A stretch of DNA of 64,000 bases from Faecousia sp. (GCA_045126495.1 JBGVON010000052.1:4516-68515), one strand, 5' to 3'. Shown: positions 15,655 to 61,524, numbered from the stretch's first letter. The notes: generated by a model not told the origin, from the sequence alone. Numbers and translations: made by a program.

Positions 15655-15768
15655 CATAATTCTTGGTTCCTGAATTGGAATCGAAAGGCGGCTCTTGGCA
15701 ATATGCCGGTGGCATATTGCAACCGCCGTGGCTTTTCCGCAGAAAAGCGATTCCGACCGGAGGCACCA
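15655..15768 (+). repeat. tRNA-Phe-linked mirror element (114-bp period)
   Basis: 15748-15768 is an exact copy of tRNA 15634-15654 (C56 to CCA). 15664-15685 is a decayed antisense copy of the tRNA 3' end. Internal hairpins at 15698-15720 and 15732-15747. Confidence 0.88.
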
Positions 15769-15883: not shown

Positions 15884-16021
15884 ATTATTTAACCCGAGCC
15901 AATGGGCTCGAAAGATATGATCCAATAGTCCTGTGGACTGTTGATCGCGACGGCTTGACGGAGCGATTCCGTAATTTTGCGTTAGCAAAAAGCAAACGAG
16001 CCTCGTCACCCGCTCCAATTA
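15884..16021 (+). repeat. tRNA-Gly-linked mirror element (134-bp period)
   Basis: 15997-16021 is an exact 25-nt copy of 15863-15887 (C56 to CCA plus ATTA). Antisense GGCTCGAA at 15905-15912. Hairpins at 15923-15943, 15946-15965, 15975-15990. Confidence 0.88.
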
Positions 16022-16172: not shown

Positions 16173-16298
16173 ATGTATGTCCAGATTTGAATAATGTAAA
16201 TGCAACGCGGACGAGCGTTGCCCGCACCGGCTGGACGGTGCGGAACCTTAATTTTTGCCTTTGGCAAAAATGCAAACAAATCTGGGCGGTACCTACCA
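16136..16298 (+). repeat. tRNA-Cys-linked mirror element (162-bp period)
   Basis: 16277-16294 is an exact copy of 16115-16132, followed by ACCA. Antisense ...CCAGATTTGAA at 16172-16191. Hairpins at 16202-16221, 16222-16243, 16252-16270. Confidence 0.88.
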
Positions 16299-57490: not shown

Positions 57491-57552
57491 ATTTTTAACA
57501 GCCAAATAACCGGTGAAACCTTCGGATATGATAATGCAGAACCGGAGGCGGA

Positions 57553-57631
57553 GGACTCTCTGGAGAACACATTTAGTTGTGTGCCGAAGGTGCAAGGCTA
57601 AGGCCGAATCTCTCAGGCAAATGGACGGAGA
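57553..57631 (+). ncRNA. Glycine riboswitch, single aptamer
   Basis: CTCTGGAGA...GCCGAAGGTGCAA...AATCTCTCAGGCAAATGGAC matches the glycine aptamer core. Sits upstream of glyA. Confidence 0.85.
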
Positions 57632-57665
57632 TACCGCAAGTGTTTTGTCCTTGTGGTGCATGTTG

Positions 57666-58995: not shown

Positions 58996-59033
58996 AAAGA
59001 CCGCATTTGTCCAGATAGACAAATGCGGTCTTT
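58996..59033. terminator. Bidirectional terminator between glyA and the tRNA-Ala locus
   Basis: AAAGACCGCATTTGTC-CAGATA-GACAAATGCGGTCTTT, a perfect 16-bp stem. Confidence 0.88.
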
Positions 59034-59034
59034 T

Positions 59035-59183
59035 TGGTGGACCTGATCGGATTCGTTTAATCAATGTTCGCCTCCGTCAAGCCGTCGGCGGTAACGCTCG
59101 TCCGCATTACATTTGTACTTTCGAATCCGCTCGGCACAAATATCGTACCAATAAAAGACCACCCTAAAAGGGTGGTCTTTTAT
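59035..59183 (-). repeat. tRNA-Ala-linked mirror element (149-bp period)
   Basis: 59035-59055 is an exact copy of 59184-59204 (C56 to CCA on the minus strand). Inverted T-loop copy at 59120-59129. Core 59059-59114 is 43/56 identical to 16198-16253. Confidence 0.9.
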
Positions 59184-59259
59184 TGGTGGACCTGATCGGA
59201 TTCGAACCGACGACCCCCACAATGCGAATGTGATGCGCTCCCAACTGCGCTACAGGCCC
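59184..59259 (-). tRNA. tRNA-Ala(CGC)
   Basis: 76-nt cloverleaf on the minus strand, anticodon loop TTCGCAT, G3:U70 alanine determinant, encoded CCA. Confidence 0.96.
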
Positions 59260-59358: not shown

Positions 59359-61524
59359 TTATAGTTTCATTACGTGGACTTCTGCGATTCGATCACTGCT
59401 GCCGATGGCTAAATATTGCTCATCAGGGGACAGGGTAATGCTGGACAAAATGTTTGCAACAGTAGGACCGTCAAAGTAGCCATGGACATTGTAGTTGATA
59501 ATACCCATCTGACGCAGACCGTTCTTATCATCATATTGGAAGAGATAGCCCAGATCTTCGTCATCACCGGCAACGCCCCACAGGTGGGTTTTGTCCTTGT
59601 TGGTGCACATGGAACGGATCGGCCCGTAGGCAGCGGCATTGCCCAGATTGAATACCTTGCCGTCGGGGGATACGATAGCAGCCAGAGCATCCAATGTTCC
59701 TACAAACTTTTTGCCGTCCTTCCAGTCCACAACACAGGATGCCTTTGCACGATATCGACGACCGGTGGCTTCGGGCAGTTTGATGTTGTCGTCGAAGTTA
59801 ACGGGTTGGGGCAGAATGTTCTCCCTGAGCCAAGTCTTATAGCTTTCATCGATCTCATCAAAACGTTTGACAGAGGTAACAGTACCGTCTACAAGCTCCA
59901 TAACAAAGGCAGCGCTGTCGAAACAACCGCTTTTGCCGGAGACCACATGGAGCTTCCAGCGGTAGTCCTTGGATACCTTGTCAAATGCCATGCCGATAAC
60001 CTTGGAGTCTTCAACTTCCAAGCGAGGTATGCTTCTCCAAATGCGGATTGCCTCCACCTTGGAGGGCGGGAATGCTTGGAAGGGGTTGTCTTCCGAGTTT
60101 TCTTCCATGGTTTGCTTTTCCAACGCCTGCCGATATCTTTCAATCTCTTCCGGTGTTCTGCATTGGATCTGAACACGAGGATCTTCTGTAACAGGGCCGC
60201 GTTCCCGATAGACCTTACGGAATTGGGACAAATCCACACAGCCAGCAGAGGGACGGACAGTGGAAAGGGGTTCTTTTGTAACCTCGTCTACCCAGTAAAG
60301 ACGGTCGTTTACATCATCATATTCCATCTCAGTGATGTAATGCTGTACACGTTCGGGTTTGCCAAATAAACCGCAACAGTAGGGCTCCTCGCCGTTGTCC
60401 GGATCCCAGCGGATCAAATAAGTACGGGTGGGGTGGGTGAACTCGGTGTCGTTGTGCATGGAGTTGCCGGACAGAGCAACCCACAAAACGCCCTCTTTGT
60501 CAATATCAAAGCCGTGGATCCACCAGCATCCGTCCTTGGCAGGCAGCTCATACAGACCGTCCATAGGACAGGCTTTGCCCAGAGGCGTAACCTTGCCTGT
60601 GGCAAATTCCAGTTTGTACATCTGATCAAGGGCGGCGAATGCCAGATACATATACTTGCCGGAGGGGTGGTTTCTGCCCATAACAAGATAGCGATACCAG
60701 GTATAGCTCTTGTAATTATCTTTGAAGTCGGGGACATGGAATTCCAGATTTTCAAGTTCAATGGTGTCAGTATTGACCTTAAACATCTGACCAGATTTTG
60801 TGCAGCCATAGAGGTGACCGTCAGCGCCCAGCACCAGTCGATAGCAGAAGATTTCTGCAACCTTACCAAGATCTTTGATTACACAGCGTTCGTTGAAGTC
60901 GTAACAATATACGTGACCCCGTATGAAGCCAATCATGTACAGACGGTTGTGCTTGGGATCATACTTGGCGCCGTAAATGGACTCATGAGGAACCGGTGTA
61001 CCTAAGGACATGACATGGCCATTCTTCGGGTCCCAAACAATTATCTGAGAGCCGGGGAAACCTTCCCACACATGGTTATGGTGCCCAAAAAGCATGAACT
61101 CCGGGTGATGCTTTGCACGGTCGGTGCAGTGGGTAGTAGCAAGAATCAGAAAATCCTTCTCATCGTAGGGAACCTCAGGATACAGCGCGTGCCGGGGAAT
61201 GGCGTTTAAAGAAGTGTGGAATTTGGAGTGGGGAAGTTGGCGGTCATGGTGCAGCAACACTTCTTTTGAGTTAAACAAAGTGACCACTCTGTCGTTGTCA
61301 TATTCAAATCGCGCCAGTTTGCTGGAACCGCACATACCGCTTTCGGAGGAAAGTGGGAAGTAGAAGTAGCCGTCGGGGGCCACCATGCCATCCCAACAGC
61401 AGTTAGCGTCTTCGTTGCCGTCCTTGGGTGCCATCCGTGCCCGGACTCCGGTTTGGTTGATGACACGCAGCGCCTCGTCGGAGAAGCGGTCAAAAACATA
61501 TTTCTTTCCGTCAATGTTTATCAT
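59359..61524 (-). CDS. Hypothetical 721-aa cytoplasmic beta-propeller protein
   Basis: Repeated blade-like motifs (APDGYFYF, DPKHNRLY, GADGHLYG, DKEGVLWV, SPDGKVF, SPDEQYLAIG). AGGAAGGGA RBS, no signal peptide. Confidence 0.75.
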   Translation of the reverse strand: MINIDGKKYVFDRFSDEALRVINQTGVRARMAPKDGNEDANCCWDGMVAPDGYFYFPLSSESGMCGSSKLARFEYDNDRVVTLFNSKEVLLHHDRQLPHSKFHTSLNAIPRHALYPEVPYDEKDFLILATTHCTDRAKHHPEFMLFGHHNHVWEGFPGSQIIVWDPKNGHVMSLGTPVPHESIYGAKYDPKHNRLYMIGFIRGHVYCYDFNERCVIKDLGKVAEIFCYRLVLGADGHLYGCTKSGQMFKVNTDTIELENLEFHVPDFKDNYKSYTWYRYLVMGRNHPSGKYMYLAFAALDQMYKLEFATGKVTPLGKACPMDGLYELPAKDGCWWIHGFDIDKEGVLWVALSGNSMHNDTEFTHPTRTYLIRWDPDNGEEPYCCGLFGKPERVQHYITEMEYDDVNDRLYWVDEVTKEPLSTVRPSAGCVDLSQFRKVYRERGPVTEDPRVQIQCRTPEEIERYRQALEKQTMEENSEDNPFQAFPPSKVEAIRIWRSIPRLEVEDSKVIGMAFDKVSKDYRWKLHVVSGKSGCFDSAAFVMELVDGTVTSVKRFDEIDESYKTWLRENILPQPVNFDDNIKLPEATGRRYRAKASCVVDWKDGKKFVGTLDALAAIVSPDGKVFNLGNAAAYGPIRSMCTNKDKTHLWGVAGDDEDLGYLFQYDDKNGLRQMGIINYNVHGYFDGPTVANILSSITLSPDEQYLAIGSSDRIAEVHVMKL

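Follow-up and report, generated by a model that had tools for sequence, protein, structure and literature searches.

Behind an intact tRNA-Ala gene lies a second copy of that gene's own 3' end, closed in on either side by a strong hairpin. Why is it there, and does its placement tell us anything about what it does? The locus belongs to a stretch of 64,000 nucleotides of Faecousia sp. DNA (GCA_045126495.1, JBGVON010000052.1:4516-68515), which we call the window. A first-pass annotation of this window had read the two hairpins as terminators, reasoned that whatever lies between them should be poorly transcribed, and seen in this a hint of a role at the level of DNA. Below we ask what the duplicate belongs to, how it came to lie between two terminators, and which explanation of it survives best.

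The layout described by that annotation, in which two stable, perfect hairpins that begin after a CCA flank an inverted arm, a core and the duplicate, is correct in every detail (Table 1). No shuffled sequence was as stable as either hairpin (z of -8.9 for the one directly behind the tRNA and -9.6 for the one on the glyA side). A simple terminator scanner flagged neither of them, because their A and T tracts are absorbed into the stems. Both open with AAAAGACC, 0 or 2 nt past a CCA. The distal hairpin was also said to end glyA, and this is so: it is a two-way structure that starts 15 nt past the glyA stop, and glyA in relatives always has a hairpin of its own right behind the stop codon. The insert as a whole measures 149 bp, is non-coding and carries no integrase or recombinase gene. 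Its inverted arm is exact over CGGATTCGAA (59120-59129) and becomes degenerate, with an insertion, toward the TGGT at 59147-59150; its core is made of two hairpins (59069-59110), an optional further hairpin, hp4, being absent here.

Table 1. Coordinates, within the window, of the parts of the tRNA-Ala site and of the sister elements in the tRNA operon.
Feature	Start	End	Strand	Basis
tRNA-Ala promoter, TTGACA / 17-nt spacer / TATAAT, 12/12 matches	59274	59302	-	Promoter scan
tRNA-Ala(CGC), intact; last 21 nt (59184-59204) are the proximal repeat copy	59184	59259	-	ARAGORN; Rfam tRNA 62 bits
Terminator hairpin 1; stem takes in the tRNA ACCA end and the TGGT that opens the inverted copy	59147	59187	-	-30.5 kcal/mol
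Inverted copy of the tRNA 3' end ("anti arm"), 5' strand of helix P1	59120	59150	-	Sequence match
Hairpin hp2: GTAATGC / GGACGA loop / GCGTTAC	59091	59110	-	Fold, alignment
Hairpin hp3: CGCC / tandem G-A / CG, loop GCTTGA	59069	59090	-	Fold, alignment
Linker AACATTGATTAAA, junction AAA/C56	59056	59068	-	Sequence
Distal direct copy of tRNA-Ala positions 56-76, 21/21; 3' strand of helix P1	59035	59055	-	
Terminator hairpin 2, two-way, common to glyA and the tRNA-Ala locus	58996	59033	.	-26.3 kcal/mol
glyA, serine hydroxymethyltransferase, convergent with tRNA-Ala	57653	58981	+	Pfam SHMT 545 bits
Element behind tRNA-Phe, short core class, inside the operon, no terminator; direct copy 15748-15768	15655	15768	+	
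Element behind tRNA-Gly(GCC), inside the operon; direct copy 15997-16017	15884	16017	+	Covariance-model match 15899-16008
Element behind tRNA-Cys, own terminator; direct copy from 16277	16136	16298	+	Covariance-model match 16178-16288

Rfam searches of the tRNA-Ala region, the operon region and 12 other loci, run with gathering and E-value thresholds, returned only tRNAs and a glycine riboswitch. The riboswitch is a single aptamer (57550-57638, + strand, 54.5 bits) immediately 5' of glyA; the usual genes downstream of glycine riboswitches are those for glycine cleavage or for transporters. Just 5' of the tRNA-Ala promoter is an open reading frame of 721 codons' worth of protein (721 aa; 59359-61524, - strand), for which Pfam gave no match at E up to 0.001.

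The same window contains sister elements in a Val-Asp-Phe-Gly-Cys tRNA operon. Each ends in a direct copy of its own tRNA, which matches at 21 of 21 positions for Phe and Gly, as for Ala, and at 18 for Cys. The annotation had placed the Cys copy, too, beyond a terminator, and it does lie past a terminator hairpin. The Phe and Gly copies do not: both are internal to the operon, and no terminator precedes them. We found no promoter-like site between the operon tRNAs around these two units. Lacking both a terminator and an internal promoter, the Phe and Gly units are necessarily co-transcribed.

These elements are part of a large family. ARAGORN finds 43 tRNAs in the 1.76-Mb assembly, 16-17 of which have their own 3' end repeated 95-200 nt downstream, and an nhmmer sweep of the genome yielded about 40 regions. 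A covariance model (R1), built from 11 copies (alignment A3), recovers 27 copies in this genome and more than 1,000 matches across Faecousia, with 127 of 151 genomes positive. The number per genome ranges from 0 to at least 25, and five genomes that are at least 94% complete have none. Outside the genus, 150 genomes from 94 other genera of the order, each at least 90% complete, gave a single weak match. A pattern scan of a species-level genome collection found true matches in gut MAGs labelled "Faecousia sp." and "Oscillospiraceae bacterium", its other matches being chance hits in GC-rich genomes. Phage and plasmid collections queried with the Cys element had no match, and a literature search found no account of the Faecousia elements.

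Among about 90 copies catalogued from other Faecousia genomes, one grammar holds across 24 tRNA species. A unit comprises the tRNA sequence from C56 through the CCA and, inverted, the same tRNA end again, in most cases with a terminator hairpin between the two; two or three hairpins complete it. Direct copies begin at C56, rarely T56, behind AAA, AAG or ATAT (about 90 copies); inverted arms terminate in T(C/T)GAA; and the arm starts 44-69 nt from the tRNA end where a terminator is present and about 25 nt from it where there is none. The element always has the orientation of its tRNA. The exact match of an arm to its own tRNA runs for 8.6 nt on average, as against 3.3 nt for non-cognate tRNAs, which puts the arrangement far above chance, and 27 of 67 copies in other genomes match at 21 of 21 positions. 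Distal copies retain positions 56-69 and are ragged or decayed at the far end, about 60% of them having no CCA or acceptor end. Tandem units occur, and in some units variable cargo separates the tRNA-end copy from the folded module. This genome also has an element at the 3' end of its tmRNA gene, so the target is T-arm-like DNA and not tRNA function as such. We conclude that the boxed-in Ala copy is the right-hand end of one gene-less folded module, about 90-170 bp long, that belongs to a Faecousia-wide family.

The tmRNA (ssrA) element (G000, C85:32150-32410; L063) is typical, with arms matched to the tmRNA T-arm. G000 also has a second, G+C-rich class of element, about 125 nt long, which reads approximately GGGAGCG, CGCCGCC-loop-GGCGG, GAGCGAGTGGC and then CACCGCAACAGG. 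It is found at C88:4890-5063, C88:5219-5348, C30:65816-65940, C30:127-259, C40:1298-1417, C18:1930-2047, C21:6527-6649 and C64:21-118 (all within L013-L019), where it stands 5' of class-II tRNAs beside a partial copy of the tRNA 5' part, and also 3' of tRNA-Leu(CAA) within a 3'-end copy. Rfam had no match to this class.

Comparison of the copies strongly supports a predicted fold in which the inverted arm and the distal copy pair as helix P1 and close a junction with hp2, hp3 and the optional hp4. In alignment A3, 88.3% of cells are paired, against 32-44% when partners are slid, and 20 of 34 pairs show double-sided changes. With 116 distinct sequences, 91.6% of cells are paired against 33-40% when slid, a gap that is large even though this alignment was fitted to the covariance model and is biased toward it; 31 of 32 pairs carry double changes, and none of 500 shuffles reached the observed values. 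P1 itself has 95.7% of its cells paired and all eight of its pairs changed on both sides, which bears out the earlier proposal that the anti arm folds back onto the duplicate. In hp3, whose loop is GCTYGA, the tandem G-A/G-A is kept in 88 of the 116 copies.

We considered and rejected compensatory evolution of arm and copy: an arm usually goes on matching the tRNA even when its copy has drifted. An exception is presented by core-less palindromes behind tRNA-Phe at four loci (L044, L047, L049 and L052, in G043, G046, G053 and G056). In these Phe-Gly spacers a short loop joins an inverted arm to a diverged copy of the tRNA-Phe end; arm and copy share changes that are derived relative to the tRNA, and the pairing itself seems to have been kept.

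Does this conserved pairing reflect an RNA or a DNA structure? In a selected RNA, G-U is normally far better tolerated than A-C. Stem mismatches in the family are rare, with 51 G-T and 38 A-C in about 3,000 paired cells; as G-T is not commoner than A-C, the evidence points away from selection at the RNA level. The evidence from strands, taken across the Ala and Cys elements, is mixed: the Ala element folds well on the sense strand (z of -3.3) and not on the antisense strand (z of -0.15), the Cys element folds equally on both strands as DNA, and the tandem G-A motif of hp3 is strand-specific. Together, the lack of a G-T preference, the patchy presence and the decaying copy ends favour a DNA-level repeat over a selected RNA.

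Gain and loss were followed at 30 Val-Asp-Phe-Gly-Cys operon loci from the same genus. Most are element-free, with a gap of 3-26 nt between Phe and Gly and of 35-43 nt between Gly and Cys. At occupied sites (Gly here and in G045, Cys here and in G061) the distal copy is followed by the native downstream flank. This comparison shows that units are present or absent at orthologous tRNA sites. When the operon-final Cys site is occupied, an additional terminator separates the tRNA from the inverted arm. At the glyA/tRNA-Ala junction synteny is lost in 30 relatives, and no empty site was found for this exact locus; tRNA-Ala in G009, G012 and G002 is followed by a terminator but has no element. To judge from the Cys and Gly loci (for Cys, in G061 and G000), hairpin 1 was most likely brought by the insert, and comparison with other loci suggests that hairpin 2 is native.

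The pair of terminators thereby loses its value as a sign of a role, one of them being common to glyA and tRNA-Ala and the other most likely insert-borne. A unit usually carries its own terminator, and its arrival would move the old tRNA end and the terminator behind it downstream; behind a tRNA that closes its transcription unit, the core would then necessarily lie between two terminators. On this view the pair is a by-product of unit construction and is uninformative on silence. The earlier interpretation is partly right, in that a DNA-level origin is supported by a family that is gained and lost as DNA and shows no preference for G-T over A-C, but a DNA role cannot be deduced from the terminators.

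Units also exchange parts. The eight tRNA-Ala elements in Faecousia have a common terminator layout and spacer and differ in their hairpin modules, with two types of hp2, three types of hp3, and hp4 either present or absent; hairpin modules have been swapped between units with the same arms and spacer. For 92 of 117 cores the nearest relative stands beside a different tRNA (for example Arg and His, 93%), a pattern that we read as frequent module exchange, not necessarily as jumps of whole units. Single hairpin modules may move on their own. One long imperfect palindrome, with its centre at the terminator loop, takes in the tRNA end, the terminator and the inverted copy. Alleles were compared to see which copy is the imported one; position 70 of tRNA-Arg gave two suggestive cases, too weak to rely on. 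We rejected the idea that the copy was made from the arm by snap-back synthesis, as the sequence past the copy is not complementary to the sequence before the arm. The element behind tRNA-Thr(GGT) (G000, C88:8492-8667; L020:391-568) has a 60-nt insertion in the hp3 loop that contains an hp2-type hairpin with a CCGGTGG apex.

The searches made for an enzyme that could move the elements identified none. This genome has eight tyrosine recombinases, none of them linked to elements, one resolvase and one partial match to an IS110-type (DEDD) protein. The last is the only such match and lies beside no element, which disposes of an IS110 bridge-RNA system. A retro-element and a TnpB-like scaffold-plus-guide system, with GGTT as the adjacent motif, were likewise set aside, as neither an RVT_1 (reverse transcriptase) domain nor a TnpB domain was found in this 91%-complete genome. 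An IS200/IS605 or RAYT mover was rejected on the distribution of Y1 (IS200-like) genes, of which this genome has one and which occur in 81 of 151 Faecousia genomes: across the 151, Y1 presence does not track element counts. Y1 is absent from G061, G215, G258, G002 and G052, which have 9-18 elements (several element-rich genomes are near-complete), and present in G240 and G004, both element-free. We saw no excised form or circle of an element.

Nor did an autonomous version come to light. Recombinase genes abut cores at L122, L162 and L167, and these belong to separate islands with their own att junctions; such islands occupy the same tRNAs, with serine recombinases in the acceptor stem and a tyrosine integrase in the anticodon loop. 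At L122 (G286; oriented positions 1380-1700), L162 and L153, large-serine-recombinase islands lie in the acceptor stem of tRNA-Arg with the junction CGGT/GTACCA. The tRNA-Arg duplicate in L122 and L153 ends CCGGT/ACACGCC, and the tRNA-proximal remnant of L122, GTTCGGT/GTACCA, adjoins a large serine recombinase gene. From their sequences, the two L122 junctions seem to be the attL and attR of one attP type, with the tRNA and the copy both used as att sites.

Duplicates of tRNA ends are known from the tRNA-linked repeats (TLRs) of E. coli, 22 repeats at ten loci, each of which has as its last 18-19 bp an exact copy of the 3' end of the preceding tRNA or 5S gene (Stenum et al. 2021, PMC8144298). 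In that account they have been known since 1978, with Egan and Landy (1978) and Rudd (1999) as its cited sources; they include the RtT RNA of the tyrT-tyrV locus (Rfam RF00391) and RrA, RrB and RrF behind 5S rRNA, and are given "no known function", the function and origin of most members being stated as unknown (PMC8144298). The rrA, rrB and rrF repeats sit between dual terminators, T1 and T2; read-through of T1, a terminator of 87% efficiency, yields their RNAs, which are processed close to the repeat (3 nt past it in rrB) and bind Hfq and CsrA (PMC8144298). As rrB lies between T1 and T2 and is nevertheless transcribed, it is unsafe to argue that a boxed-in sequence is silent. The same precedent, made by T1 read-through (PMC8144298), and the transcribed Phe and Gly sister units undercut the earlier step from two terminators to a poorly transcribed core.

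The E. coli units contain further parts that are not stated in PMC8144298. The K-12 tyrT units (178 bp each; NC_000913.3 1286700-1287630, L255) contain GGGGAAGGAT, the exact reverse complement of the first 10 nt (ATCCTTCCCC) of the tyrT terminal copy, and then GC-rich hairpins. In rrB (NC_000913.3 4171750-4171950, L256) a T-arm-like palindrome, CAAATCCGCC / GCGGATTTG, is followed by two hairpins and then a copy of the 5S end; this palindrome resembles a T-arm although the upstream gene is 5S rRNA. The RtT model RF00391, which scores 133-137 bits on the E. coli tyrT units, has no match in the region (E up to 10) or in the whole genome (E up to 1), and the Faecousia covariance model finds nothing significant at the E. 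coli loci. Judged by these models, the Faecousia modules have the TLR layout with no detectable homology to E. coli TLRs.

The reading we prefer, to which we give an even chance of being right, is that the Ala copy ends a TLR-type module that spreads and turns over as DNA through recombination at tRNA 3' ends, with exchange of modules and with read-through that is probable but unselected. A unit would be added at the T-loop boundary between positions 55 and 56, by recombination of the unit's tRNA-end copy with the tRNA gene. The working tRNA would then end in sequence and a terminator borne by the unit, the old end and old terminator having been displaced downstream. The long palindrome and the arm:copy helix would be the recombination-prone part, probably as a folded strand on which host functions, or an enzyme whose gene lies elsewhere, would act. 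Arrays could grow through unequal crossing-over, and gene conversion could homogenise the cores. As in E. coli, transcription by read-through is likely, and we see no sign of a selected RNA product. Two sets of observations weigh against this reading: the conserved tandem G-A of hp3 and the better sense-strand folding of the Ala element would also fit an RNA, and no enzyme is tied to the family, no excised circle was seen and no empty Ala site was found.

Those first two features lead to an alternative that we consider unlikely, namely that the unit is a small RNA gene of the RrA/RrB/RrF kind. Read-through of terminator 1 would produce a four-helix transcript and terminator 2 would stop all transcription; the tRNA-like 3' copy would serve as a 3' processing signal, and the two terminators would set a low, tRNA-coupled dose of RNA. 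For such a gene rrB is a precedent in its placement between T1 and T2, its transcription and processing, and its binding of Hfq and CsrA (PMC8144298). The constant orientation of elements with their tRNA, the unavoidable co-transcription of the Phe and Gly copies, the folding of the Ala copy on the sense strand only and the strand-specific tandem G-A all agree with it. Yet about 60% of distal copies have lost the CCA or acceptor end on which such a signal would depend, and nothing in the model requires arms to match the neighbouring tRNA. It also sits badly with stems in which G-T is no commoner than A-C, with whole hairpins replaced by unrelated ones at the same locus, and with a presence as patchy as 0 to at least 25 per genome, including none in five genomes at least 94% complete.

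Could the units instead arise with no dedicated enzyme? The inverted copy would form by template switching at the terminator palindrome (quasi-palindrome correction), the direct copy by slippage or unequal crossing-over, and cores would spread by ectopic gene conversion. We regard this as improbable, and somewhat more so than a small RNA gene. The tRNA end, terminator and inverted copy do form one long palindrome, core-less palindromes stand behind tRNA-Phe in four relatives, modules are swapped at orthologous loci, and no enzyme correlates with the elements. What speaks against it is the left junction: about 90 copies from 24 tRNA species share the exact join (C56, rarely T56, after AAA, AAG or ATAT), which suggests a directed process and not repeated accidents.

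The first-pass annotation had offered a further possibility, that duplicates serve as spare or decoy attB sites. On this account the duplicate is kept so that islands land in the copy instead of the working tRNA. Among related genomes, the duplicate of tRNA-Arg in L122 and also L153 carries what seems to be an island junction, and the L122 junction with a serine-recombinase island can be read as the copy used as a second attB. This one case concerns one tRNA in two related genomes, the tRNA itself is occupied too in L122, and such use of the copy is a consequence of its presence, not a demonstrated purpose. Since an island that enters a tRNA gene normally restores it, a decoy would bring little benefit, and the inverted arm and conserved hairpins would be left unexplained; we think a decoy very improbable. 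Scarcely credible, lastly, is an attL/attR remnant of an ordinary integrase-bearing island with a deleted interior: the T-loop-to-3'-end direct repeat is the classic signature of T-loop islands and integrase islands are present at tRNA-Ala(GGC) in this genome, but a core of about 100 nt is present more than 1,000 times, spread over 24 or more tRNA species, and in no case encloses an integrase, covarying hairpins are unexpected in att arms, and the phage and plasmid collections have no match.

The Faecousia family displays the TLR layout at a far larger scale, with more than 1,000 copies, filled and empty sites, covariation and arms matched to tRNAs. It supplies comparative material that E. coli lacks, and with it the nature and origin of TLRs could become testable. 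There are practical consequences as well: partial tRNA copies are easily taken for att scars of islands or for tRNA pseudogenes, cause assemblies to break at tRNA loci, and can act as secondary landing sites for real islands.

How do these modules compare with known systems? Like the palindromes of IS200/IS605 and the REP/RAYT repeats, they are small, hairpin-rich, non-coding repeats at gene ends, with conserved motifs at the hairpin apices and perfect Watson-Crick stems; those systems, unlike the Faecousia units, have no long target duplication. With integron attC sites and the attP(+) of CTX-phi they share imperfect palindromes in which structure is conserved and sequence is variable, and paired boxes around an unpaired centre, and some Faecousia units have cassette-like variable cargo. 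In contrast to those systems, no IntI-type integrase or dif-like site is linked to the Faecousia units, and the equivalent of attI would be dozens of different tRNA genes.

Islands that target tRNA and tmRNA genes, by which we mean tyrosine-integrase islands and prophages with T-loop attachment together with integrase-less cis-mobilisable elements, are also similar in several respects. In both, a direct repeat from the T-loop to the 3' end brackets the insert and the tRNA remains whole; past the distal repeat comes the native flank (seen here at the Phe, Gly and Cys sites against 30 relatives); tmRNA is a target too; and arrays accumulate at one tRNA. The Faecousia units differ from integrase islands in having no integrase and measuring only about 100 nt, and from islands in placing one core at 24 or more tRNAs with arms matched to each. 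The AAA to the left of C56 does not mimic a T-stem, so that, unlike in islands, no double-stranded core site is evident.

The closest layout is that of the E. coli TLRs. Expression and protein binding are shown for the E. coli repeats only, and the Faecousia family is far larger and patchier (0 to at least 25 per genome, at 24 or more tRNA species). The copy begins at C56 in Faecousia and around position 58 in E. coli, and the terminal copy is 21 nt long in the Faecousia Ala element and 18-19 nt in TLRs. We have entertained the idea that both belong to one widespread class of gene-less mobile DNA that would dock on tRNA T-loops as a folded single strand, with arms that mimic the target, and would be moved by an unnamed enzyme or by host functions. 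This we hold to be a long shot; if true, folded-strand docking on the T-loop would be a new, self-addressed mode of site-specific insertion. In both organisms the units lie directly behind a tRNA gene (or, for TLRs, also an rRNA gene) on the same strand and occur singly or in tandem, rrB lies between two terminators as the Faecousia Ala copy does, and the order of parts is the same: inverted arm, core and terminal copy.
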